A DNA stretch of 64,000 bases, from positions 6,866 to 70,865 of the forward strand of contig CANRGM010000100.1 in NCBI GenBank assembly GCA_947630155.1. Direction: 5' to 3'. The notes beneath the pieces are model-generated. The model was not told the origin of the DNA, did no database searches, and saw nothing but the letters and a program-made list of their open reading frames with translations. Shown one piece after another: positions 19,389 through 57,208 of this stretch. The first letter of the stretch is position 1. Each line of letters starts with the position of its first letter. The position numbers were made by a program, and so were the translations under genes. Origin of the DNA: an uncultured Clostridia bacterium (GTDB lineage: Bacteria; Bacillota; Clostridia; TANB77; CAG-508).

Positions 19389-21107
19389 TTATTTAACTTT
19401 ATTATTCTTCCACAACATGCTAATCTTCCCTTGAGAATATTTTTTCTTGGGGCTAACAACATTAGAACGATTTTCTCGTTTCCATATTGGAGGCAAGAAA
19501 TAAGAGGTTGCGGCCCTTTTATTGTTATGCAACATATATGGTGTAAGATATGGTGCACCAAAAGATTTTAAGTTGCTTAAAAATATAATTTGAATAAACA
19601 AACCAACTGCAATTCCTAGGAATCCGGCCATATAACCTAGGAAAATATAAATAAATCTACATATTCTTATTGTAAAATTAAAAGTAAAATCAGGTATACT
19701 AAATGAACAAATTGCAGTAATAGCAACTATTATAATTAAAACAGGACTAACAAGATTGGCATTAACAGCTGCTTCTCCAAGAATTAAACCGCCTACAATA
19801 CCAATAGTTGGACCTATTGGAGAAGGAACTCGTAATCCTGCCTCACGGATAAGTTCGAATGAAACTTCCATTAGTAGAATTTCTATAATTGTTGGAAAGG
19901 GGACAGTCTCACGGGCTGCTTCTATAGTAAATAATAATTCAGTTGGCAATAATTCATGATGGTAGGCTGTTACTGCAACATAAATTCCAGGTAAAAATAG
20001 TGCAAAAAATATTGCTACTAATCTGATTAATCTTAACATATCTGAAAATTGGAATTTGAAATTTGTGTCTTCAGGAGATGATAAAAAATCAGACAGAACT
20101 CCTGGAGCAAGAAGAACATAAGGAGTACCATTTACTATTATTGCAACTCTTCCTTCTAATATGTGAGTAACAGTCTTATCAGGTCTTTCAGTTGCAAGAA
20201 GTTGAGGGAATAAACTGCTAGCATTATCTTGAATTAATTGTTCAAGTTGTCCAGATGATGTTAGATGATCTATGTCAAGATTATTAATTCTATATTTTAC
20301 TTCTGCAACTAAATCATTATTTGTAATATCTTTTAAATAGCATATAGCAACTTTAGTTTTTGTGATTTCCCCAACAGAACAATTTTCAATTACTAAGTTC
20401 TCATTATTAATTATTCTTCGTATCATTGAAGTGTTAGTTCTTATGTTTTCTACAAATGCCTCTTGAGGACCTCTTATTACAATTTCATTTTGAGGATTAC
20501 TTACACTTCTTTGCTTAAAACCTTTTACATCAATATCAAATCCAACATTTATAGTATCCACAAGCAAAAAGCAGTTTCCCATATTTATTCCTGAAAAAGC
20601 TTCTTCAAATTTTTCTATATGTTTAACATCGTTTTGTGGAATAAGATGGTCCATAATATAGTTTTGTAAATTAAATTTTTTTATCTTTCTAATTACAACA
20701 TCATTATTATTGAATTCTGAGACTATTTCTTTTTCATCCCCTGTGTAAGTATTGGCTCTATTTCGTAGCATAAGAGGGTTTAATACAGAGGCATTAATAA
20801 TCTTAGATTCCACCATTCCATCTATATAAATTATTGCAGCATTGTATTCTTTGTTTCTTGCTGTTATTACAAATTCACGAATAATTATGTCACTATTTAT
20901 TAGGCTATTGTATTTTGTTTTTATGAAGTTAAGGTTTTCTTGTATATTAGTGTAAAAGTTGGTTGGCTCTAAGTCTTTTGCAGGGGAAACAGGAGTATTT
21001 TCTATGTCTTTTACATTTTCAGTGGTCAAGAAGAAATTGTATTCATTTTGAGGGCTATATTTGAAAAATTGATTGTAGATTTTTTTGAAAATGTTATTTT
21101 GATTCAT
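19389..21107 (-). CDS. gerAA: Spore germination protein GerAA (KA family), appears intact
   Basis: 572 aa; soluble N-terminal domain plus C-terminal multi-TM region typical of GerA-type A subunits; first gene of the minus-strand operon. Confidence 0.85.
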   Translation of the reverse strand: MNQNNIFKKIYNQFFKYSPQNEYNFFLTTENVKDIENTPVSPAKDLEPTNFYTNIQENLNFIKTKYNSLINSDIIIREFVITARNKEYNAAIIYIDGMVESKIINASVLNPLMLRNRANTYTGDEKEIVSEFNNNDVVIRKIKKFNLQNYIMDHLIPQNDVKHIEKFEEAFSGINMGNCFLLVDTINVGFDIDVKGFKQRSVSNPQNEIVIRGPQEAFVENIRTNTSMIRRIINNENLVIENCSVGEITKTKVAICYLKDITNNDLVAEVKYRINNLDIDHLTSSGQLEQLIQDNASSLFPQLLATERPDKTVTHILEGRVAIIVNGTPYVLLAPGVLSDFLSSPEDTNFKFQFSDMLRLIRLVAIFFALFLPGIYVAVTAYHHELLPTELLFTIEAARETVPFPTIIEILLMEVSFELIREAGLRVPSPIGPTIGIVGGLILGEAAVNANLVSPVLIIIVAITAICSFSIPDFTFNFTIRICRFIYIFLGYMAGFLGIAVGLFIQIIFLSNLKSFGAPYLTPYMLHNNKRAATSYFLPPIWKRENRSNVVSPKKKYSQGKISMLWKNNKVK

Positions 21108-21306: not shown

Positions 21307-21582
21307 TTACAATATAATACAAATCAATCCACTACTTCCTTCATTAACAATACGCTCCAAAGTCTCCTGCAATTTCGCCTGAGAGTCTTCTGGCATTCTA
21401 CATAACTTATTTTGTAATCCTTCATTAACTAGTTCATGTAAACTTTTACCAAAAATATTTGATTCCCAAATCTTCTTAGGATCACTTTCAAATTCAGAAA
21501 GTAGATAATTAACAAGTTCTTCAGATTGTTTTTCACTACCTACTATAGGAGAAACTTCAGTTTCAATATCAGCACGAATCAT
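21307..21582 (-). CDS. Hypothetical small protein (91 aa)
   Basis: ORF with flanking hairpin; no family recognised. Confidence 0.45.
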   Translation of the reverse strand: MIRADIETEVSPIVGSEKQSEELVNYLLSEFESDPKKIWESNIFGKSLHELVNEGLQNKLCRMPEDSQAKLQETLERIVNEGSSGLICIIL

Positions 21583-21715: not shown

Positions 21716-21755
21716 AAAGATGCATTAATTAAAAAAATTATATGCATCTTTTTTT
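21716..21755. terminator. Hairpin AAAAGATGCAT-(16 nt)-ATGCATCTTTT followed by T7
   Basis: 11-bp perfect stem plus T-run; overlaps the annotated start of ORF 21742. Confidence 0.45.
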
Positions 21756-22218
21756 AATGGAGGTGAGAAAAATAGAAAATACTAAAGTAAAAAATTTCTT
21801 TGATAAGAAATCAAAAGGAGCACAAGATATAATAGTAAAAATAATTGAGGATAGTTTATTGTGTTTATATAATCAAGAAAAGATTAAAGATGAAACACTA
21901 AACAGAGTTATATCTTTTTACTTTTTATTGATTGAACATCAATATGACAAGATGATAGAATTTGATGATTTTACTGTTGATGAGAAAAAGATAATATTTC
22001 AAATTTTAATTGAAGGTATTGCATCAGTTTATGTTGATAATGAATACTTAGAATATTCTGACAGAGGAACTAAATATAAGCAAGTAATAATAGAAGAACT
22101 ATTATCATTTTTTAGATATATCACAAAATTTAGTAAAGAGAAAGTATTTAAAATTTACTATGATGAAGTTCAGAAATATAGAAGATTAAGTTTTAGTTGG
22201 GATGATATTCCTTATTAA
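21742..22218 (+). CDS. Hypothetical protein (158 aa); start uncertain because the first ATG lies inside a hairpin
   Basis: ORF track only. Confidence 0.4.
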   Translation: MHLFLMEVRKIENTKVKNFFDKKSKGAQDIIVKIIEDSLLCLYNQEKIKDETLNRVISFYFLLIEHQYDKMIEFDDFTVDEKKIIFQILIEGIASVYVDNEYLEYSDRGTKYKQVIIEELLSFFRYITKFSKEKVFKIYYDEVQKYRRLSFSWDDIPY

Positions 22219-22365: not shown

Positions 22366-22457
22366 GAGGAAGAGAAGATTTTGAAGAAAGAAGAGAGGCT
22401 AGAAAAGAAAGATATGAGGAGCTTTCTAAAAAGGCAGAGGAGAGGTCAGAACAATAT

Positions 22458-23087
22458 ATGAATTCTAAAGCTAATAGAATTCTAGAAATGACACCTGGAC
22501 AGCCTATAATAGTTGGTCATCATTCAGAAAAAATGGCAAGAAGATTACACGAAAAGGCTTGGAATGATATTGGAAAATCTATCGAAGAAGATAAGAAAAG
22601 TAAGTATTATAAGGATAAGGCAGAAACGCTTGAAAGTAGTAATGTTATTTATGGTGATGATCCCAATGCAATTAGTAAATTAAAAGAAAAATTAGAGTAT
22701 TTGGAAAAGCAAAGAGAACTTATAAAAGCTGATGAAAATCATAAATCTTGGCAACTACAAAATATTGGAGCTCGAATAAGAGAAACTAAAAAAAGAATTG
22801 AAAGAATGGAAGAATTAGAAAATATTAATTTTGAGGATAAAGAGTTTGTAGGAGGAAAAATAATTCATAACAAAAAAATAAATAGGATTCAAATAATATT
22901 TAATGATATTCCATCAGAAGATATTCGTAGTAATTTAAAACATAATGGATTTCATTGGTCTAGGTCTGAAGGAGCTTGGCAAAGAGAATTTAATCAAAAT
23001 ACTATAAGAGCTACTAATAGATTATTACAAGATGTATTAAATAAAGAAAATGTGCAGGAAATAGAAGACGAAGAAGAATTTGAGTAA
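22458..23087 (+). CDS. DUF3560-like protein (GHHSE motif), ending in the acidic tail EIEDEEEFE
   Basis: PIIVGHHSEKMARR motif. The frame is open about 110 nt upstream (ERYEELSKKAEERSEQY, typical of DUF3560 N-termini) with no canonical start there, so the start is uncertain. Confidence 0.55.
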   Translation: MNSKANRILEMTPGQPIIVGHHSEKMARRLHEKAWNDIGKSIEEDKKSKYYKDKAETLESSNVIYGDDPNAISKLKEKLEYLEKQRELIKADENHKSWQLQNIGARIRETKKRIERMEELENINFEDKEFVGGKIIHNKKINRIQIIFNDIPSEDIRSNLKHNGFHWSRSEGAWQREFNQNTIRATNRLLQDVLNKENVQEIEDEEEFE

Positions 23088-23179
23088 TTATTGAGAGGTA
23101 AAACTACCCTAATAAAATATGAAAATGGCACAAAATCGATTCTCGTGCGAGTGAAACAAGGAGGTGAGCAGGAATACAG

Positions 23180-23863
23180 ATGAAATTCAAATTAAATGTT
23201 GTAAATAAAAAAGAATATGAAGAAAAAGATAATTATAAGGAAATTATAATTGTACTTCCAAAAGATAGTGAGGAATTAGAAAAGGATTTTGAGTATTTAG
23301 GATTAGATTATAAATCTTTATCTGTGCAAGATACACATGTTAAAAAAGTTGAAATTCTAAATTTCAGTAATAAAAGATTATCAAGTGCTTTGAATGAATT
23401 ACTAGAGGATGTGAAAGAAGAGTCTGGTCGCAATGGATATACAATGCCATTTAATAATGTTAAACAGTTATATGATACAATAAAAGATTTTAATGAATCA
23501 CAGATGATAAAGTTGTTAGCTGTATTAGAGGCTGAAAAAGAAAGTATTGAAATTATAAACGATTTAGTTGATTTTTCAAATAGACTGGATGAATATGTTT
23601 TAGATGATGAAATTTTTGATGCAGAAGCATATGCTAGAAGTCTTTTTGATAATGGTGACTTAGTTGTTGAAGATATTACTGATTACATAAATATTGATGA
23701 TATTATAGATTGCATTGATTTAGATGCAATTGGAAGAGACTATGCATTACAATATGGCAAAAGTATAACTCCATATGGTTTGGTGGAATGTGTAGGTGAG
23801 CCATATCATAAAGTAAATGAATCAGTTCAATTAGAAAATGAGGAGGAGAATGAGTTTGAATAA
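23180..23863 (+). CDS. Acidic hypothetical protein (227 aa) ending ENEEENEFE
   Basis: ORF with strongly acidic composition; RBS GGAGGTGAG upstream. Confidence 0.5.
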   Translation: MKFKLNVVNKKEYEEKDNYKEIIIVLPKDSEELEKDFEYLGLDYKSLSVQDTHVKKVEILNFSNKRLSSALNELLEDVKEESGRNGYTMPFNNVKQLYDTIKDFNESQMIKLLAVLEAEKESIEIINDLVDFSNRLDEYVLDDEIFDAEAYARSLFDNGDLVVEDITDYINIDDIIDCIDLDAIGRDYALQYGKSITPYGLVECVGEPYHKVNESVQLENEEENEFE

Positions 23864-24950
23864 ATTAGAATTATTAAACGAAGTTCGTAATCAAGAGATA
23901 CATAAATTATATTATTATTCTGAAGATAGCTCGTTAAATAAAGCTAAAGTCGGATGCTTTGATCAATGGGAACAGTCAAAAGAAAATTTAAAAGTTATTG
24001 ATGAAATAATAAAGGATATTAAGAAAATAGAAATGGGGGAATTTAAAGAAGTGATGCTAGATGTAAAAAAACACGAAGGAGAGATTGAGTTACTTCTGCC
24101 TAGAACTATAAAAGATCTCAAACATATTTTAAAAGGCATTGATATAGAACTTGATGATTTATTATACGGAACTTCAGTTGTGGAAAATATTGAAACTGGA
24201 GTTCCGTATTTAGATAAATTAATTGATGAGTATAGAGAAGTTAACTTAAATGAATTAAATTATTTAAGTTATGTGATATGTCATTTTGATAATGAACAAA
24301 AAGAAAAATTTAGTGCAATATTACAATTTGAAGATGATAACAATAATATTAAATCATTAAAAGATGTAATACAAGTTGCTTTTAGTTTAGATGAATATAG
24401 ATTCCAAGAAGGAGTAAAGGATTTGGACGACTATGTAAAAGCTATAATTATTGGTCACGAAGAAGAATATTCAAAATTAAAAATAACTGATATAGATCAT
24501 ATCTTAAAAACAATGAATGATTTTGCAAAAGGAAAGTATCTAGAATATGATGATAAAAATTATTTTGTTGGTTATAACACTCTTGACAAGATAACTAGAA
24601 GACAAAAAATAAAAACATATAGATTAAGAGATTGGGAAGGAAATCAGTACGAATTTATGACTGATATTGTTTCAGCAATTGGAGTAACTGTTGTAACAAA
24701 TGGAACTCTATATAGAGATTCAGAATTACTTATTTCAACTAACTTGCCTTATGAAGATTATATTGAGCAGTTAGAAAAATTAACTGAGAGAAAATCGATG
24801 GAAATATTTTCAGAAATGTCAAAAAATTTTGGGATATTTCCTGTGTATCTAGGTGATGAAAGATTAAGAGATTTTTCTATATTGCTTGAAAAAAATAATA
24901 TAAATGAAAATGAAGTAGAGTCAGAAGATGAGTTTGATGGGGGTGAATAA
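23850..24950 (+). CDS. Hypothetical protein (about 366 aa) ending ESEDEFDGGE
   Basis: ORF 23838..24950; the internal Met at 23850 follows an AGGAGGAG RBS. Confidence 0.5.
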   Translation: MSLNKLELLNEVRNQEIHKLYYYSEDSSLNKAKVGCFDQWEQSKENLKVIDEIIKDIKKIEMGEFKEVMLDVKKHEGEIELLLPRTIKDLKHILKGIDIELDDLLYGTSVVENIETGVPYLDKLIDEYREVNLNELNYLSYVICHFDNEQKEKFSAILQFEDDNNNIKSLKDVIQVAFSLDEYRFQEGVKDLDDYVKAIIIGHEEEYSKLKITDIDHILKTMNDFAKGKYLEYDDKNYFVGYNTLDKITRRQKIKTYRLRDWEGNQYEFMTDIVSAIGVTVVTNGTLYRDSELLISTNLPYEDYIEQLEKLTERKSMEIFSEMSKNFGIFPVYLGDERLRDFSILLEKNNINENEVESEDEFDGGE

Positions 24951-24955
24951 TTATT

Positions 24956-25411
24956 ATGGAAGATAAAAAAGTTGCAGTAAAATCAGGATATTATATGGAT
25001 TTCTTTTCAAAAAGTGAAATACCTAAAACATTAAAAAAGTCTGATAAACAAATTTTATTTAACAATAAGGTTTATGATTTATATGAAGGAACAAGCCTAG
25101 AAGATGAAAGAGCAATTGATGAAATGTTTGGAGATAATATGGGTTACTTAACTGAAGCTCACATCTACACAGGAGAAATTAAAGAAAAAATTAAACCTAA
25201 ATGTAAGCTGATTGGAGAGAATGGAAACATTTATAATCTTATGGGTATTGCATCTAAAACTTTAAGAAGGAATGGAATGGAGCTTGAAGCAGAAGAAATG
25301 GTTATGAGAATAGAAAATTCAAAAAATTATTATGAAGCACTAAATGTAATTCAAGATTATGTTGAAGTAACTGGAGAAGAAGAATTGGAAGAGGAGGAAG
25401 AATTCGAGTAA
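24956..25411 (+). CDS. Hypothetical protein (151 aa) ending EELEEEEEFE
   Basis: ORF with tight spacing to the upstream gene. Confidence 0.5.
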   Translation: MEDKKVAVKSGYYMDFFSKSEIPKTLKKSDKQILFNNKVYDLYEGTSLEDERAIDEMFGDNMGYLTEAHIYTGEIKEKIKPKCKLIGENGNIYNLMGIASKTLRRNGMELEAEEMVMRIENSKNYYEALNVIQDYVEVTGEEELEEEEEFE

Positions 25412-25489
25412 ATCGGCACTGTTTTCTGTATAACTGAATGTTATACAAGAAAAAAATTGTAAATATGCTAAAAGCCACGCTTTTAGGCT

Positions 25490-25550
25490 GTTATGGGGAG
25501 TTTGTATAACTCCCTCTTCCTGCAAAATTGCCTGAAGGCAATTTTGAGTG
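25490..25550. promoter_or_regulatory. Candidate origin of transfer (oriT): two adjacent inverted repeats
   Basis: GGGAGTT-TGTATA-AACTCCC (25493-25513) and a perfect 10-bp repeat CAAAATTGCC-TGAA-GGCAATTTTG (25523-25546), immediately upstream of the RHH/relaxase gene pair. Confidence 0.5.
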
Positions 25551-25572
25551 TCCGATTGTAGAGAAAGTAGGA

Positions 25573-26040
25573 ATGTTTATGAGTAAAAAAGTAAGTTCAA
25601 AAAATGAGATGTTTCTTTTAAGATTAAGCAAGGAACAGAAGGAAAAAATCTTCAATATTGTGGAAAAAAGTTCATATAATAGTGCATCAGAATTAATTAG
25701 AGCAGGTATAGAAAAAGAAATAAATTTGCAAATGTATAAGGATAATATGGATGTTATTATAAAAGAATTAAGCAAATTAATTGATGTAAAATTAGATAAT
25801 TTCATAAAATCTGAACGAAAATTAATCGCAAATAATGTTCGAGTTAATGCATTAAATACATATATTATGGGTGAAGTTATTAAAAGATTAATGGGTGATG
25901 AACTCTATCAAGAATTTTTGAAAATAATTGAAAGTGGTAGAGTTAAAGCAAATTATTTTGTTAGCAGAAATGCAGAAGACATTTCAAAAGAGGAGTTACT
26001 TGAGTTCTATGGAATAGGAAAGGTTTATAGAAATGAGTAG
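25573..26040 (+). CDS. Ribbon-helix-helix relaxosome accessory protein (MobC-like)
   Basis: LRLSKEQKEKI...SASELIRAGI resembles the RHH motif of MobC/CopG-like mobilisation proteins; overlaps the relaxase start. Confidence 0.55.
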   Translation: MFMSKKVSSKNEMFLLRLSKEQKEKIFNIVEKSSYNSASELIRAGIEKEINLQMYKDNMDVIIKELSKLIDVKLDNFIKSERKLIANNVRVNALNTYIMGEVIKRLMGDELYQEFLKIIESGRVKANYFVSRNAEDISKEELLEFYGIGKVYRNE

Positions 26041-27268
26041 TGTTTTTTTTGAATTGGAAACTCTGAATCCAAACTATAGAACAACATATTTTAAATTAAA
26101 AGATTATGCAGAATATTTGGCTAAAAGTGAGTATGCAATTAGAAATGAAAATACTACACATGGACTATTTGGAAGAGTGGAACAGTTTCCTAATATTCAA
26201 GATGAAGAAGATTTAGATGGAATAAAAAATTTCATAACTAATCTTGCTAAAGATAAAAAGCCTATTATGAGAGGTGTTATTTCATTAAAAGAAATTGATG
26301 CAACTAGATTAGGTTACTACGATCAAGAAAAGTGGAAAAATTTATTTGAAAATAGGTTGCCAAAGATTGCAGAGATGTTAAATGTAAAATATGAAAATCT
26401 GCAATATGTTGGAGCAGTCCATATTGAAGATGGACATCCACATTTTCAATTTATGTTGTGGTATAAAAATGAATATAAACGAGATTATTTTGTGCATTAT
26501 AGCATTAAAAATAAGTTGAGATTGCAGTTTACAAATGATATATTTCGAGAGAATTTACTTCCAATATATCAAGAAAAAGATTTTTCTAAAAAGAGGATTA
26601 CAACAGAAAATTACTTGTTAAATCAATTGAAAAATGTGAGTAACAATAAGAAGTTTCTAGAAGACATATTAAAATATGAGAGAAATTTTGAACAAACAAA
26701 ATTTATAAAACATCTATTAAAAGATAGGGAAGTTAAGCAGATTGTTGATTTATTAATTGATTTAAAACGAGAATTAAGAAGTGTAAGTGGAAGTATAAAA
26801 TATCAGTATTTAACGAGTCATCCTGAAGTAATTAAGAAGGTTGATGATATTTCAAGATTAATAATTGCATCATCTCCACAATGTCAAATCGAAATTGAAA
26901 AATATATTCAAGCCAAGCAGAAATTGCTAGAGTTTCAATATTCAGATGTAGCAAAGTTAGAAGAGGCAAAAGAAAAAGCAAGGCAAGATGCCGAAAAAGA
27001 AATTATAAAAATGATTGGAAATCAAATTTTAGACATTGAAAGAAAATGGCTTAATGGTAGAGAAGAATATACATATACTAAATATAAAAGTGAAACAAGA
27101 AACTTATTAGACAGTATTATTACAGCTTTGTATTATCAAGCTGAAAATAGGAAAAAATATAATAAGAATTTTGAATTGAAATTCAAAAAGCAATTATCAA
27201 AACAAGCTAAAAAAGAATTAGCAATTAAGAAACGAAATGCATCAGAATATGAGTGGGAAGAATTGTAA
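26033..27268 (+). CDS. Conjugative relaxase/mobilisation nuclease (MOBP/MobA-VirD2-like)
   Basis: Three-His motif HIEDGHPHFQF (HxDxxHxH) and N-terminal Tyr-containing region; its position directly after the RHH gene and candidate oriT is consistent. Confidence 0.65.
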   Translation: MSSVFFELETLNPNYRTTYFKLKDYAEYLAKSEYAIRNENTTHGLFGRVEQFPNIQDEEDLDGIKNFITNLAKDKKPIMRGVISLKEIDATRLGYYDQEKWKNLFENRLPKIAEMLNVKYENLQYVGAVHIEDGHPHFQFMLWYKNEYKRDYFVHYSIKNKLRLQFTNDIFRENLLPIYQEKDFSKKRITTENYLLNQLKNVSNNKKFLEDILKYERNFEQTKFIKHLLKDREVKQIVDLLIDLKRELRSVSGSIKYQYLTSHPEVIKKVDDISRLIIASSPQCQIEIEKYIQAKQKLLEFQYSDVAKLEEAKEKARQDAEKEIIKMIGNQILDIERKWLNGREEYTYTKYKSETRNLLDSIITALYYQAENRKKYNKNFELKFKKQLSKQAKKELAIKKRNASEYEWEEL

Positions 27269-27546: not shown

Positions 27547-27882
27547 ATGCCAAATAAGATTGATAGTGTAATAAAGAAGTTTATAGCACAATTGTCTGAA
27601 TTACTAGGAAGCAGATTAAAGAAAGTAATTTTATATGGCTCTTATGCCAGAGGTGATTATGATAAAAATTCTGACATTGATATAATGATTTTAACAGATT
27701 TTAGTGATGATGAAATAATTGAATATAGAAAGAAAATAATAGATTTAGCTTGTGATTTAGAAATGGAAAATGATGTTATGATTTCTCCTTTATTAAAAAA
27801 TATTGACAAATATAATAAAAGAGTAGATGTAATACCGTTTTATTATAATGTTCAAAAGGAAGGAGTTGTTGTACATGGGTGA
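27547..27882 (+). CDS. mntA: Nucleotidyltransferase antitoxin-like protein (MntA-like, Pol-beta superfamily)
   Basis: GSYARGD...SDIDI minimal nucleotidyltransferase signature; 111 aa; overlaps the downstream HEPN gene. Confidence 0.75.
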   Translation: MPNKIDSVIKKFIAQLSELLGSRLKKVILYGSYARGDYDKNSDIDIMILTDFSDDEIIEYRKKIIDLACDLEMENDVMISPLLKNIDKYNKRVDVIPFYYNVQKEGVVVHG

Positions 27883-28294
27883 AGAAATTACAATAAGTAG
27901 TCTAGCCAATTATAGATTAGAAAGGGCAAAACAAGATTTATCTGATGCCGAATATAGCTATCAAGGAAGGAGATATTTAATTGCAAATAATAGAGCATAC
28001 TATGCTGTCTTTCATGCAATAAGAGCAGTTTTAGCTTTGGAAAGAATTGATTTCAAAAGGCATAAAGATGTTCTTGCTTATTTTAATCAACATTATATTA
28101 AAACAGAAATATTTCCAAGAACAATAAGTAGAAAGATTAGTGAAGCAGGTAAAATTAGAGAACATAGTGATTATGATGATGAATTTGTTCCAACAGATGA
28201 AGAAACAAGGAAACAAATAGAAACTGCAAAAGAATTAATTGAACTTGTAGAAAAGTATTTATATGAAAACAATAAAAAGAAAATAGAAAACTAA
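27875..28294 (+). CDS. hepT: HEPN-domain toxin-like protein (HepT-like)
   Basis: Alpha-helical, about 139 aa; start ATG overlaps the mntA stop (ATGGGTGA); AAGGAAGGAG RBS; HEPN-like R..H motifs; classic MNT-HEPN pairing. Confidence 0.6.
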   Translation: MGEEITISSLANYRLERAKQDLSDAEYSYQGRRYLIANNRAYYAVFHAIRAVLALERIDFKRHKDVLAYFNQHYIKTEIFPRTISRKISEAGKIREHSDYDDEFVPTDEETRKQIETAKELIELVEKYLYENNKKKIEN

Positions 28295-28516: not shown

Positions 28517-29506
28517 ATGAATAAAAACAAAAGAATTTATATAATTATATTATTAATTATGCTTATTACACTAATTATAATAGCAGGATTAAATATTGAT
28601 AAAATAAACAATAACGAAAACAATCCTATAATAGAAACAGAGGCAAATGAGTATGCAAATTTAAATATAAATAAGGATGAATTAAATATATTTTATCTTA
28701 ATGTTGGTCAAGGTGATTCTACACTTATAACAATTAATGGATATACTATGTTAATAGATAGTGGAAATGATTCAGATGGATATTATATTTCTCAATTTCT
28801 AAAAGCTCAAAACATAAATAAAATTGATTATTTTATAGTAACTCATTTTGATGATGACCATATAGGTGGAGCATATAAAATTTTAGAAAATATTCAAATT
28901 GGGATATTGTATACGCCAAATGGAACTTCTACAACTGATGCATATAAAAAATTTGTAAAATCAGTTGAAGATAATAATATCAATATTAATAACGGATTAA
29001 CTGCTTCAAAAGAAATTACATATACATTGGGAGAAGCTAACTGGAAGGTATTAAACATAAATGCAAAAGATTCAAATGATTCTTCTATTGTAGTTGAATT
29101 GGATTATAAAAATACAAAGTATCTTTTTATGGGAGATGCAACAACTACTGTAGAGAAAAATGTTGAATGGGATGAAGTTGATGTTTTAAAAGTTGGGCAT
29201 CACGGATCTAATTCAAGTACAAGTGAATCATTTTTGAAAGCTACAAAGCCCCAATATGCAATAATTTCTGTTGGTGAAAACAACAGTTATAAACTACCAG
29301 ATGACGATGTAATTGAAAGATTGATAAGTAATCACATAACTGTATTTAGAACGAATGAAAAAGGTACGATTTGGTTGAGAAGTGATGGTACAGAAATTAC
29401 GTTTGACTTTTTAATAGAATATAATATTGATGGAAACGGTAGGAAGCATGCAAATATTTTTGAAAGAAAGTATTGTGTGCTTTCTTTTTATAAGAATACA
29501 ACATGA
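28517..29506 (+). CDS. Membrane-anchored MBL-fold metallo-hydrolase (ComEC C-terminal domain-like)
   Basis: N-terminal TM helix; metallo-beta-lactamase motifs (HFDDDHIGG, GHHGS); 329 aa. Confidence 0.65.
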   Translation: MNKNKRIYIIILLIMLITLIIIAGLNIDKINNNENNPIIETEANEYANLNINKDELNIFYLNVGQGDSTLITINGYTMLIDSGNDSDGYYISQFLKAQNINKIDYFIVTHFDDDHIGGAYKILENIQIGILYTPNGTSTTDAYKKFVKSVEDNNININNGLTASKEITYTLGEANWKVLNINAKDSNDSSIVVELDYKNTKYLFMGDATTTVEKNVEWDEVDVLKVGHHGSNSSTSESFLKATKPQYAIISVGENNSYKLPDDDVIERLISNHITVFRTNEKGTIWLRSDGTEITFDFLIEYNIDGNGRKHANIFERKYCVLSFYKNTT

Positions 29507-51650: not shown

Positions 51651-53627
51651 ATGAAAAATGAAAATAAAAAAACAAACAAAAAAGCTATAATTACAATAAT
51701 TGTAGTAATTATTGTGATAGGAGCACTTGTAACAACGGGACTATTTTTTACTGTAAAGTATTTAAAAAATTCTAAAACAAGTGACAAGGAAAAAGATGAA
51801 ATTATAAAAGAAGAATCACAAGCAGGAACAAAAACCCTAATGATTTATATGTGTGGTTCAGACTTAGAAAGTGGTGGAGGAATTGCAACAAGTAATCTAC
51901 AAGACCTTATAGCATCAAAAGTTGACTATGATAATATAAATGTAATTTTATGTGCTGGTGGATCAACAAAATGGCATAACAACGACATTTCTAAAACAGA
52001 AACATCATATTTTAAGGTTACAGATGATGGTTTGGAAATGATAAAAAAACAATCTAAACAAGATATGGCAAACAGTAAAACCTTAACGAATTTTATTGAT
52101 TATACTTATGATAATTATAAAACTGATGAATATTATTTTATGTTTTGGGATCATGGCTGTGCATTAGTTGGATTAGAATTAGATGAATTCTCTGAACGTA
52201 CATTAAGTTTAAAAGACTTGAATACAGGTTTAAAAAATTCAAAATTAAATAAGGATAACAAAAAATTCGACCTAGTAATACTAAACAATTGCCTTATGGG
52301 AAGCTTAGAAGTGGCAAACATCATTTCTAATTATGCAGATTATCTTGTGGCATCTGAGGATGTAATGTATGGGGGATCTGAAATAACAACATTTGAGTTT
52401 TTAGAAGGAATAAAGAAAAACGATGGTGCAGAAGAAATAGGTAAAAGTTATATTGATACATACACAAAAGCAATGAAAAAAGGAAATCCTGGAACCTATA
52501 TTACACTTGCATTACTAGATTTAAGTAAAATTGAAAATGTAGTTAGTGAGTTAGATGAATATATTGGAGACATTAAATTAGATGAAACAAGTTTTAAAAA
52601 GATTGCAAAAATAAGGGCAGGAGTATATGAGTATCAAAAAACAGATGATTACTACGATATGGTTGATTTACATCAATTAGTAACAAAATTGGGATCAGTT
52701 AATAGCAATAATAAAAATTTATTAAAAGCAATTAAAGATGCAGTAATATATAAATCAGTAACAGATCCATATTCTAACGGAATTTCAATGTATTTCCCAG
52801 AAACTTATGATTGGTCACCAATATATGAAACAATAGATTTTTCAAATACATATGAAACTTTTGCTAAAAAATATATTGATATATATACAGGAAAGAAAAA
52901 ACCAAGCAGTTTTGCAGTAGCGGCAAAAGATGTAGCTAAAATAGATACAGGATTTTCAATGCAATTAACAGATGAGGAAAAGTCAGAATACAAAAGCTCA
53001 CAATTTGTTATATTTGAAGATAATGGTGATGGTACATATAACACAATTTTGACCTCATCTGATACACAGATATATGATAATGGAGTTATAAAAGCAAATA
53101 TAGACAATAAATTGCTTTCAGTTATAGATAAATCTGATGGAACGGTTTTCCCATTAGGCTATATATTTGAAACAGATAGAACTGAAGATTATATTATGTA
53201 TGATGTTCCAATTATATTGGCAGAACCTTATGGAGAAGATTATATTTCTCATACAACGGTCGCATTAATGAGTATAAAGGTGTATAATGATGGCAAAATA
53301 GAGAAACTAGCAACCCGTGATTGGTCTTCAACTTCAGGAGTAGAAGGAAAAACAACTTCAAATGGAGCAATTTTAGATATTACTGATTCAAGCAAATATA
53401 ATTCAATATATTTTATAAAATCTGCTAGAAAAATAGAGTTTGATGAAAATGGCAATTATCAAAAATTAGGTGAACTGTCATCTACACGAGGAGTTTCAAT
53501 TGATGTAAATAGTGAATTTACATTTGAGAAAACAGATTTAGATCCAGATAAGAAGTATGTTGGAGTGTTTGTTGTAACAGATGTTTATGATAATAAATAT
53601 TCTTCTAAATTGATTGATATTAAATAA
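51651..53627 (+). CDS. Membrane-anchored peptidase C11 (clostripain-like) family protein, copy A
   Basis: N-terminal TM; FWDHG (catalytic His) and NNCLMG (catalytic Cys) motifs; 658 aa; about 90% identical to copy B. Confidence 0.7.
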   Translation: MKNENKKTNKKAIITIIVVIIVIGALVTTGLFFTVKYLKNSKTSDKEKDEIIKEESQAGTKTLMIYMCGSDLESGGGIATSNLQDLIASKVDYDNINVILCAGGSTKWHNNDISKTETSYFKVTDDGLEMIKKQSKQDMANSKTLTNFIDYTYDNYKTDEYYFMFWDHGCALVGLELDEFSERTLSLKDLNTGLKNSKLNKDNKKFDLVILNNCLMGSLEVANIISNYADYLVASEDVMYGGSEITTFEFLEGIKKNDGAEEIGKSYIDTYTKAMKKGNPGTYITLALLDLSKIENVVSELDEYIGDIKLDETSFKKIAKIRAGVYEYQKTDDYYDMVDLHQLVTKLGSVNSNNKNLLKAIKDAVIYKSVTDPYSNGISMYFPETYDWSPIYETIDFSNTYETFAKKYIDIYTGKKKPSSFAVAAKDVAKIDTGFSMQLTDEEKSEYKSSQFVIFEDNGDGTYNTILTSSDTQIYDNGVIKANIDNKLLSVIDKSDGTVFPLGYIFETDRTEDYIMYDVPIILAEPYGEDYISHTTVALMSIKVYNDGKIEKLATRDWSSTSGVEGKTTSNGAILDITDSSKYNSIYFIKSARKIEFDENGNYQKLGELSSTRGVSIDVNSEFTFEKTDLDPDKKYVGVFVVTDVYDNKYSSKLIDIK

Positions 53628-55231: not shown

Positions 55232-57208
55232 ATGAAAAATGAAAATAAAAAAACAAACAAAAAAGCTATAATCACAATAATTGTAGCAGTTATTGTGATA
55301 GGAGCACTTGTAACAACGGGACTATTTTTTACGGTAAAGTATTTAAAAAATTCTAAAACAAGTGAAAAGGAAAAAGATGAAATTATAAAAGAAGATTCGC
55401 AAACAGGAACAAAAACCTTAATGATTTATATGTGTGGTTCAGACTTAGAAAGTGGTGGAGGAATTGCAACAAGTAATCTACAAGACCTTATTTCATCAAA
55501 AATTGATTATGACAATATAAACATAATTTTGTGTGCTGGAGGTTCAAGCAAGTGGTATAACAATGATATTTCAAAAACAGAAACATCATATTTCAAGGTT
55601 ACAGATGATGGTTTAGAAATTATAAAAAAACAATCTAAACAAGATATGGCAAGTAGCACAACATTAACAAATTTTATTGATTACACTTATGACAATTATA
55701 AAACTGATGAATATTATTTTATGTTTTGGGATCATGGTTGTGCATTAGTTGGACTAGAAGTAGATGAACTATCAGAAAACATATTAAGTTTAAAAGATTT
55801 GAACACAGGTTTAAAAAATTCAAAATTAAATAAAGCAAATAAAAAATTCAACATGGTAATATTAAATAATTGTCTTATGGGAAGCCTAGAAGTTGCAAAC
55901 ATTATGTCTAATTATGCAGATTATCTTGTAGCATCTGAAGACGTAATGTATGGTGGATATGGAATAACAACTTTTGATTTTTTAGCAGGAATAAAGAAAA
56001 GTGATGATGCTGTAAAAATAGGCAAAAGTTATATAGACACATATACAAAAGCAATGAAGAAAACAAATCCAGGAACTTATATTACATTTGCCTTACTAGA
56101 TTTAAGTAAAATTGAAAATGTTGTTAGCGAAGTAGATAAATATTTTGGAGAAATTAAATTAGATGAAACAAGTTTTAAAAAGATTGCAAAAATAAGGGCA
56201 GGAGTATATGAGTATCAAAAAACAGAGGATTGCTACGATATGGTTGACCTACATCAATTAGTAACAAAATTACAATCAATAAACAGTAACAACAAAAATT
56301 TATTAAAAGCAATCGAAGATGCAGTTATATACAAATCTGTAACAGATCCATATTCTAACGGAATTTCAATGTATTTTCCAGAATCTTTTGATTGGTCACC
56401 AATATATAAAACAATAGATTTTTCAAATACATATAAAACTTTTGCTCAAAACTATATTGATATATATACAGGAAAGAAAAATGCAAGTAGCTTTGCAGTA
56501 AAGGCAAAAGATGTAGTAAAAATAGATACAGGATTTTCAATGCAATTAACAGATGAGGAAAAGTCAGAATATAAAAGCTCACAATTTGTTATATTTGAAG
56601 ATAATGGTGATGGTACATATAACACAATTTTGACATCATCTGATACACAAATAGATGATAATGGAGTTATAAAAGCAAATATAGACAATAAATTGCTTTC
56701 AGTTATAGACAAATCTGATGGAACAGTTTTCCCATTAGGCTACATATTTGAAACAGATAGAACTGAAGATTATGTTATGTATGATGTTCCAATTATATTG
56801 GCAGAACCTTATGGAGAAGATTATATTTCTCATACAACGGTCGCATTAATGAGTATAAAGGTGTATAATGATGGTAAAATAGAAAAACTAGCAACACGTA
56901 ATTGGTCTTCAACTTCAGGAGTAGAGGGAAAAACAACTTCAAATGGAGCAATTTTAGATATTACTGATTCAAGCAAATATAGTTCAATATATTTTATAAA
57001 ATCTGCTAGAAAAATAGATGTTGATGAAAATGGTAATTATGAAAAATTAGGTGAACTATCATCTACACGAGGAGTTTCAATTGATGTAAATAGTGAATTT
57101 ACATTTGAGAAAACAGATTTAGATCCAAACAAGAAATATGTTGGAGTGTTTGTTGTGACAGATGTTTATGATAATAAATATTCATCTAAATTGATTGATA
57201 TTAAATAA
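55232..57208 (+). CDS. Membrane-anchored peptidase C11 (clostripain-like) family protein, copy B
   Basis: Same motifs as copy A; 658 aa; flanking non-coding sequence is also duplicated. Confidence 0.7.
   Translation: MKNENKKTNKKAIITIIVAVIVIGALVTTGLFFTVKYLKNSKTSEKEKDEIIKEDSQTGTKTLMIYMCGSDLESGGGIATSNLQDLISSKIDYDNINIILCAGGSSKWYNNDISKTETSYFKVTDDGLEIIKKQSKQDMASSTTLTNFIDYTYDNYKTDEYYFMFWDHGCALVGLEVDELSENILSLKDLNTGLKNSKLNKANKKFNMVILNNCLMGSLEVANIMSNYADYLVASEDVMYGGYGITTFDFLAGIKKSDDAVKIGKSYIDTYTKAMKKTNPGTYITFALLDLSKIENVVSEVDKYFGEIKLDETSFKKIAKIRAGVYEYQKTEDCYDMVDLHQLVTKLQSINSNNKNLLKAIEDAVIYKSVTDPYSNGISMYFPESFDWSPIYKTIDFSNTYKTFAQNYIDIYTGKKNASSFAVKAKDVVKIDTGFSMQLTDEEKSEYKSSQFVIFEDNGDGTYNTILTSSDTQIDDNGVIKANIDNKLLSVIDKSDGTVFPLGYIFETDRTEDYVMYDVPIILAEPYGEDYISHTTVALMSIKVYNDGKIEKLATRNWSSTSGVEGKTTSNGAILDITDSSKYSSIYFIKSARKIDVDENGNYEKLGELSSTRGVSIDVNSEFTFEKTDLDPNKKYVGVFVVTDVYDNKYSSKLIDIK

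Follow-up and report, generated by a model that had tools for sequence, protein, structure and literature searches.

Four consecutive genes beside a candidate origin of transfer encode proteins with a common acidic C terminus

We analyzed a 64,000-nucleotide stretch of DNA (hereafter the window; GC content ~27%) from an uncultured Clostridia bacterium (assembly GCA_947630155.1, contig CANRGM010000100.1, positions 6,866 to 70,865). From ~21.6 kb onward, the window carries a conjugative element, assigned here to a family of integrative and conjugative elements (ICEs), all of whose genes lie on the + strand. The element begins with a gene for a 158-amino-acid (aa) protein and a tiny DUF3789 gene, followed by four genes that we term A, B, C and D, a gap that is a candidate origin of transfer (oriT), an accessory gene and a relaxase gene. 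A preliminary description of the locus had reported that A to D are four co-oriented open reading frames (ORFs) whose products share acidic ends, and all four are present as it described them.

Protein A (22458..23087, + strand; 209 aa) is a member of the DUF3560 family (Pfam, E 1.8e-26) and ends ...QEIEDEEEFE, with the tail EIEDEEEFE encoded at 23058-23084. Its start lies ~30 codons later than that of its 237-240-aa homologues (window 22383-22458), giving an N terminus ~30 aa shorter, and in relatives a short overlapping ORF ending ...KKEEKEE occupies the place where the extra N-terminal codons of A would be; the late start may reflect a start-site or frameshift difference in the window copy. 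Protein B (23180..23863, + strand; 227 aa) carries the tail ENEEENEFE (encoded at 23834-23860) and appears to be a divergent ArdA-fold protein. The earlier view of B as an acidic, ArdA-like protein held for its charge (net -31) and its predicted fold; at the sequence level, the match to Pfam ArdA (18.3 bits) fell below the gathering cutoff of 27. The fold was recovered by fold search only, the predicted model combining it with a strongly negative surface, and a B-family profile gave no ArdA match among PDB sequences; some B homologues carry a precomputed PF07275 match. If B acts like ArdA, it would inhibit type I restriction-modification enzymes.

Protein C (23838..24950, + strand; net charge -28) is 370 aa long, or 366 aa if its start is at 23850, and carries the tail ESEDEFDGGE (encoded at 24918-24947). 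Profile alignment revealed a central domain common to B and C (hhalign probability 89%, E 2e-6), by which C is a paralogue of B and the two are not independent families. The first 57 aa of C exist elsewhere as separate 87-aa proteins that end ...INEEEFE. Protein D (24956..25411, + strand; 151 aa; tail EELEEEEEFE encoded at 25379-25408) consists of an N-terminal small beta domain and a C-terminal three-helix domain that matches phrog_1933; structure comparison found no solved structural relative of D. In both of the predicted structure models of these proteins, the tail is the sole long stretch with a predicted local distance difference test score (pLDDT) below 50.

A fifth protein (37750..38232, + strand; 160 aa), encoded after an M23 peptidase gene in the type IV secretion system (T4SS) region of the element, ends ...ESEEELELE. 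This is an aliphatic variant of the tail, and its orthologues end ...NIDELEVE or ...DEEELVIE. Among 74 non-overlapping window ORFs of at least 60 aa, only 6 have at least six Asp or Glu residues in their last ten; four of these 6 are the consecutive genes A to D, a run with a chance probability of ~9e-4. None of the ~20 chromosomal ORFs at positions 1-21600 of the window carries the tail.

The tail is a selected, protein-level motif

An alignment of the relaxase was used to scan species-level genomes and yielded 21 related loci, all of them from uncultured gut and rumen bacteria and nearly all labelled Clostridia; 19 were used for statistics. We defined the block as the genes upstream of the accessory gene and relaxase, and the strict motif as a terminal [DE][DE][FYW][DE]?, in which the final residue is optional. 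The strict motif was present in 61 of 127 unique block ORFs versus 7 of 357 ORFs elsewhere (Fisher p 1.4e-33; 19 loci). For ORFs of at least 80 aa, with S-adenosylmethionine (SAM) synthetase left out, an acidic-hydrophobic tail was found on 79 of 97 in the block versus 15 of 294 elsewhere, and the block genes that lacked it were mostly truncated or outside the element. The preliminary description had raised the possibility that such tails represent compositional drift. We found that 54 of the 97 block proteins have [DE][DE][FYW][DE] at their end, compared with four internal occurrences in 18,758 positions, that residue shuffles of the block proteins gave 0.06 terminal motifs versus the 54 observed, and that 1 of 739 unique ORFs from 80 unrelated viral loci carries the tail. 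Drift is thus rejected by the shuffles, by the internal-versus-terminal counts and by the background ORF sets, and homologues, as set out below, keep the tail.

The consensus of 75 block tails that match a broad motif, which itself demands D/E at -3 and at -4 (or -2), has E at -7 to -3, F at -2 and E at -1. At positions -7 to -5, 48-61 of the 75 tails have E or D. The residue at -2 is F in 51, L in 9, Y in 5 and M in 2 (67 of 75 together), and the last residue is Glu in 66. No Pro occurs in the tails of this class, which we write as EEΦE (Φ, hydrophobic residue), either in the window or in the related loci. An example tail peptide of the family is GEEELEEEEEFE.

The matches outside the block fell on the relaxase itself and on soluble accessory proteins encoded just past the relaxase or ~10 kb into the T4SS region. 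The tail is thus strongly enriched in the block without being exclusive to it. Proteins without the tail include the membrane and structural proteins of the T4SS, the SAM synthetase (MetK), a methyltransferase and a toxin-antitoxin pair.

At the DNA level, the tail codons vary (GAA/GAG, TTT/TTC), as do the stop codons (TAA/TAG), and the sequences 3' of the stop codons are unrelated between genes. The varying codons and the unrelated downstream DNA together indicate that the repeat of the tail is at the protein level, and the unrelated DNA beyond each stop codon also led us to reject a cassette boundary or repeated DNA site. A ribosome-binding site or translational coupling was likewise rejected as the source of the EEFE core, which contains no GGAGG, varies in its codons and, in A and D, precedes gaps of 92 nt and at least 116 nt, respectively. 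The GGE extension of C does overlap the ribosome-binding site of gene D, and the GGE of ...EEFGGE variants likewise reflects the GGAGG-type ribosome-binding site of the gene that follows. The tolerance in position that ...EEF-GGE endings reveal fits a signal in the terminal region better than a carboxylate-anchored peptide. From these results, we conclude that the tails are a selected, protein-level short linear motif, E-E-E-E-E-[F/Y, less often L/M]-E-COOH, on a disordered C-terminal extension.

The tail follows the element rather than the protein fold

We assessed the homologues of each protein. Of the 103 closest D homologues, 78 end [DE][DE][FYW][DE]?, and the remainder are mostly near-variants (...SEFE, ...NEY, ...EFFE) or fragments; many members end exactly ...EEY or ...EEF-COOH. 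In the B family, 44 of 68 homologues have the strict motif, the others being mostly ...EEFGGE variants or fragments. Fifteen of the 19 A homologues in related loci end ...[DE]F[DE] and one ends ...EEEEEEM, while the other 3 are truncated ORFs without a tail. Beyond these loci, an exhaustive search with DUF3560 returned 4,986 relatives, and the tail was present on 4 of the best 150 representatives, these 4 being the closest. Since 146 of the 150 representatives lack it, the tail cannot be a trait of the DUF3560 family. The DUF3560 proteins that do carry the tail have net charges of -3 to +7.

Phage-borne homologues of the core domain of D gave a similar answer. None of those on 80 viral contigs carries the tail: they are mostly stand-alone proteins of ~62 aa, most of which end ...EYVEVE or a close variant, and the ICE versions of D extend into the tail where the phage versions stop. 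Conversely, the tail is found on DUF3560, ArdA-like and phrog_1933-domain proteins, on orphan proteins and, in relatives, on a RadC/JAB protein. In two related loci (L024, L027), D is divided between two genes, both of whose products are tailed; fused proteins with the B domain (413-426 aa) have a single tail, at their end. Each polypeptide thus seems to need its own tag, as is the case for sorting or docking signals. Together, these data demonstrate that the tag is linked to the element rather than to the fold.

More distant D homologues occur in other ICE types, where their neighbours include ArdA, LPD28, DUF4314, Imm51, DUF3849 and YodL. In those ICEs, unrelated neighbouring genes have a different common ending, an acidic stretch followed by M-x-M (...LSMGGM, ...NEMEM, ...VMKM, ...TMSM, ...GMVM, ...MNMSM, ...TMGM, ...TQSM and ...MEMEMM; loci L013, 3790-10570; L039, 970-9480; L040, 3442-3957; L068, 355-681 and 3774-4172; L094, 2592-3453). 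This class is less secure, as part of these tails (M-G-G-M) overlap embedded GGAGG ribosome-binding sites. If real, a tail class that changes with the element lineage would point to a reader encoded by the element rather than to a universal host target.

The tailed genes lie in a putative leading region

The tailed block ends at the candidate oriT (25412..25578, no strand assigned), the gap between D and the accessory gene. This gap contains several inverted repeats, at 25422-25452 (13-nt arms), 25468-25486 and 25523-25546 (11-nt arms, perfect), and three copies of the motif GTTATACAA. The accessory gene (25528..26040, + strand; 153-170 aa), a candidate relaxosome component, lies directly 5' of the relaxase gene in all related loci. 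Its product has no acidic tail and ends ...GKVYRNE; it is possibly a ribbon-helix-helix protein, judging from a single weak, below-cutoff NCBIfam match to the CdrS transcriptional regulator (E 0.006, 16.6 bits, cutoff 100). The relaxase (26033..27268, + strand; 411 aa) is MobP3-like (NCBIfam MobP3, E 2.2e-38, 132.6 bits, slightly below the cutoff of 150). Its C terminus (window 27238-27265) is ...NASEYEWEEL, and the relatives in L017-L035 have a conserved aromatic-acidic end, ...N-x-S-S-F-N-W-E-[DE]-x; the ends found in relatives include ...SSFNWEDE[LIF] and ...EFEWEEL.

Downstream of the relaxase gene lie a nucleotidyltransferase/HEPN pair, a metallo-beta-lactamase-fold gene, a broken coupling-protein gene, a truncated TrbL gene, and genes for a DNA methyltransferase, VirB4 and the M23 peptidase; a sortase and an LPXTG adhesin are also encoded in the element. 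The region had no Megablast match in plasmid and phage collections. The coupling-protein gene lies in pieces in at least three reading frames, and TrbL_4 is truncated (window 29869-31903 and 31884-33127). The same breaks are present in two independent assemblies (L007, L008), and the element copy in the window has probably lost the capacity for self-transmission. In some relatives, at least part of the transfer genes are intact, such as those for a 548-aa coupling protein and a 596-aa VirB4 in L034.

This gene order and single direction are those expected where a leading region precedes oriT and the transfer genes, oriT being a prediction. The leading-region position put forward in the preliminary description accordingly stands as far as the co-oriented genes before an inverted-repeat-rich gap, the accessory gene and the relaxase gene are concerned, but oriT itself remains putative: genes A to D all point toward the gap on the + strand, and this matches leading-region orientation only if the predicted oriT and transfer direction are correct. 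The anti-defence content of the block, by predicted function, comprises the ArdA fold of B and its paralogue C, to which relatives add SAM synthetase and RadC. Published leading-region anti-defence islands (PMC11541004) adjoin oriT on the flank opposite the relaxase, have genes that point to oriT, so that their template is the transferred strand, and use single-strand promoters (Frpo/ssi); the survey of these regions included no MOBP3 elements.

A promoter and terminator scan gave signals at background level, with no + strand terminator at 21.5-27.4 kb. With no such terminator in this region, the block could be co-expressed with the transfer genes in the donor. A promoter-like site is present in the gap between A and B (window 23091-23118), where TTGAGA and TAAAAT are separated by 16 nt; it falls inside an 18-nt string, GGTAAAACTACCCTAATA, that also occurs at 9194-9211 of L015/L016, a relative whose relaxase is only ~51% identical to that of the window.

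The tail may act as a docking or translocation tag for the T4SS

Three roles had been proposed for the tail in the preliminary description: an interaction peptide resembling the tip of SSB (the protein that binds single-stranded DNA), a DNA-mimic motif, and a T4SS signal of the E-block type. The last of these fits the pattern best, with translocation itself a prediction. We hypothesize that the tail is a docking or translocation tag for the type IV secretion machinery of the element, analogous to the Glu-rich signal of Legionella, a reading that we favour while placing it a little short of an even chance. In this scenario, a gut-Clostridia ICE lineage that has a MobP3-like relaxase has put the tag on most of the small soluble accessory proteins that it encodes, irrespective of fold; the tag would dock them onto one element-encoded receptor, either the coupling protein complex or the relaxosome; and the donor would send ready-made anti-restriction and establishment proteins through the T4SS alongside the DNA. 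The receptor, the translocation and the position of oriT are what we infer here. We favour a T4SS tag because the tail is fold-independent, element-specific, strictly C-terminal, predicted to be disordered and present once per polypeptide, and because it tolerates a 3-residue extension, is carried by soluble, cargo-like proteins, resembles the relaxase end and is missing from the phage versions. The relaxase is an obligatory T4SS substrate, and we count its conserved aromatic-acidic end (...SSFNWEDEx) in favour of a T4SS tag.

DotM, of the Legionella Dot/Icm coupling complex, binds Glu-rich ('E-block') C-terminal effector signals (PMC5802825, PMC7280309). As in that system, the tails have a Glu-rich stretch within the last 10-20 residues and, near the C terminus, a hydrophobic residue, occur on many unrelated proteins, appear disordered and tolerate some shift. 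The hydrophobic residue is at -3/-4 in RalF and here at -2 (67/75) or, if aromatic, at -1, that is, one or two residues off. In contrast, Dot/Icm is a Gram-negative type IVB system that injects eukaryotic hosts, whereas the ICE described here is Gram-positive and has a coupling protein resembling VirD4; no member of the DotM/IcmP family was detected among the Pfam matches of the scanned window genes or the precomputed matches of the related loci. The motif is also much sharper here (a near-invariant terminal EEΦE), and it marks the element's own accessory proteins, whose export is a prediction from sequence.

A second precedent is the F-like T4SS of pED208, which translocates leading-region and maintenance proteins including PsiB, SSB, PsiA and ParB (PMC8406263, PMC11288057); the F system has no consensus translocation signal, its signals being varied and either C-terminal or internal (PMC11288057). 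In both cases the genes adjoin oriT (here a candidate), and the element's own establishment proteins could travel with the DNA. The difference is that here a single acidic-aromatic consensus would mark the whole set. C-terminal secretion signals are already known, and what is unusual in the present case is how sharp the consensus is and that it covers an entire gene block. We found no description in the literature of an acidic tag on conjugative accessory proteins, and nothing relevant for DUF3560.

Several observations weigh against a T4SS tag. Both the binding and the translocation of the tailed proteins are predictions from sequence patterns, and the DotM/IcmP family is missing from the matches searched. 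Leading-region genes may do without export, because early expression in the recipient can suffice. The relaxase end is similar to the accessory-protein tag but not identical, and the related Bacillus thuringiensis MobP3 plasmid pCT72 does not share the tail. Finally, the tails are intact although the coupling-protein gene in the window is a pseudogene; with a broken coupling protein, the window copy cannot now use such a signal, although the gene may have decayed recently. We also looked for a basic receptor patch in the charge profile of coupling proteins, which proved uninformative.

Other explanations of the tail were weighed against the same data. The tail could instead dock proteins to an element-encoded hub other than an export receptor, either within one complex or as a relaxosome tether for regulation, and with no export. 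This would produce the same element-specific, fold-independent, one-per-polypeptide pattern, and F-plasmid TraD, whose acidic C-terminal tail ends in Phe and binds TraM (structure cited in PMC8406263), is a precedent for an acidic, aromatic-bearing docking peptide within a conjugation apparatus. In that case, however, the tail is on the coupling protein, whereas here it is on cargo-like proteins, and the coupling protein of intact copies lacks such a tail (that of L034, apparently intact, ends ...QNLERKMK). There is no candidate hub, and a tether common to as many as seven unrelated accessory proteins is difficult to account for unless these proteins are delivered somewhere. We therefore regard a hub as unlikely, though worth keeping in view.

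We think it distinctly unlikely that the tail is a degradation or turnover tag that limits the lifetime of anti-restriction and establishment proteins and thereby confines their action to a brief period after transfer. A peptide that is disordered and strictly C-terminal, on proteins that are probably needed transiently, would suit such a role; yet phage homologues, likewise expressed transiently, lack the tail, and host proteases are conserved, so that lineage-specific tail classes would be unexpected. Known bacterial C-terminal degrons are, moreover, non-polar or basic, and acidic residues tend to weaken recognition by ClpX.

Mimicry of the acidic SSB C-terminal tip (or of T7 gp2.5-type tails), in competition for the host proteins that bind the tip, is in our judgment quite improbable, and the SSB-like role proposed earlier fits poorly. 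The SSB tip, D-D-D-[IL]-P-F, is likewise an acidic run with an aromatic residue at a disordered C terminus, and the many D-family members ending exactly ...EEY or ...EEF-COOH come close to it. However, the Phe of the tails is mostly followed by Glu, which is the last residue in 66 of 75; the aromatic residue is thus usually penultimate, and in ...EEFGGE it lies further in still. The tails have no Pro, at -2 or elsewhere, and no OB-fold carrier. A conserved host pocket would also predict neither a tail class that depends on lineage nor untailed phage homologues.

A non-specific charge feature, whether a DNA-mimic extension or a solubility 'bristle', is very improbable. B and C are indeed very acidic, and B appears to share the fold of ArdA DNA mimics (Tn916 Orf18, PDB 2w82), with sequence similarity below the Pfam threshold; B differs from these in its extra EEΦE tail, which it has in common with its non-ArdA neighbours. 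The DNA-mimic role suggested earlier does not suit a tail that is predicted to be disordered, conserves a hydrophobic or aromatic residue at -2 (F, Y, L or M, 67/75), occurs on near-neutral or basic DUF3560 proteins and is missing from phage homologues of the same domain. Least credible of all, and already largely refuted, is a DNA- or RNA-level by-product of embedded ribosome-binding sites or conserved cassette-boundary recombination sites: GGAGG-type sites account for the GGE of C and the ...EEFGGE endings and lie within some M-G-G-M tails, but GAA GAA TTT GAA contains no ribosome-binding site, the F/Y interchange is conservative at the protein level, and the gaps after A and D and the varying codons and stops run counter to it.

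Conjugative elements must overcome the defences of the recipient within minutes, and the tag bears on the question of whether and how Gram-positive elements pre-load recipients with selected protective proteins. In this one element family, ~80% of the candidate proteins bear a peptide of 5-8 residues that the phage versions of the same domains lack. If the T4SS reading is true, the tail would provide a sequence rule by which exported anti-defence proteins could be sought in metagenomes. Should the tag serve turnover or hub assembly instead, it would still be an undescribed motif that organizes a whole gene block. A broader proposal, about which our doubts clearly exceed our confidence, is that each gut Firmicutes ICE lineage has its own C-terminal address tag (EEΦE-COOH or acidic-M-x-M-COOH), marking soluble anti-defence and establishment proteins that are exported via the T4SS with the DNA. 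On this proposal, the tail would be the first sequence-defined signal for translocation through a conjugative T4SS of Gram-positive type, and the proteins that an element exports could be read from its genome.

Insertion site and other genes of the element

Positions 1-21300 of the window are chromosome-like, and the only gene there that was assigned to a family is a GerA germination gene (19389-21107). The left end of the element adjoins a 91-aa ORF (21307-21582, - strand) that corresponds to the last ~93 codons of spoIVA (Pfam SpoIVA_C match). This fragment has 58-64% identity to residues 395/400-492 of what we take to be the B. subtilis SpoIVA sequence. The element end adjoins spoIVA in L001-L007, L015, L016, L030-L032 and L035 as well, with flanks farther to the left that vary among host genomes, and the 5' part of spoIVA is absent throughout the window. 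From these sequence comparisons, the ICE family seems to insert within the sporulation gene spoIVA, as skin does in sigK. A search of the literature on insertion in sporulation genes turned up cases for sigK, spsM, gerE and yabG, and none for spoIVA.

The first gene of the element (21742-22218; 158 aa, no family match) encodes a protein that ends ...SFSWDDIPY, near the SSB tip D-D-D-I-P-F. The single orthologue found (L018) ends ...FRWDSNL, and the likeness to the SSB tip is therefore not conserved. The nucleotidyltransferase/HEPN pair (27547-28294) and the metallo-beta-lactamase-fold gene (28517-29506), between the relaxase and coupling-protein genes, encode products without the acidic tail; the metallo-beta-lactamase-fold protein has a faint precomputed match to the anti-Pycsar Apyc1 family. 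In the T4SS region, the ORF at 38232-38432 and its orthologues in L018-L035 encode a conserved protein of 61-77 aa with an invariant-looking end, ...P-[YF]-x-E-x-x-L-D (...PYEEEWLD in the window). Farther downstream, two 658-aa ORFs (51651-53627 and 55232-57208), 3.6 kb apart, have identical C termini, and the first of them matches the clostripain family (Peptidase_C11). Response-regulator genes and a radical SAM/SPASM gene flank these ORFs, and the region may represent cargo of the element.

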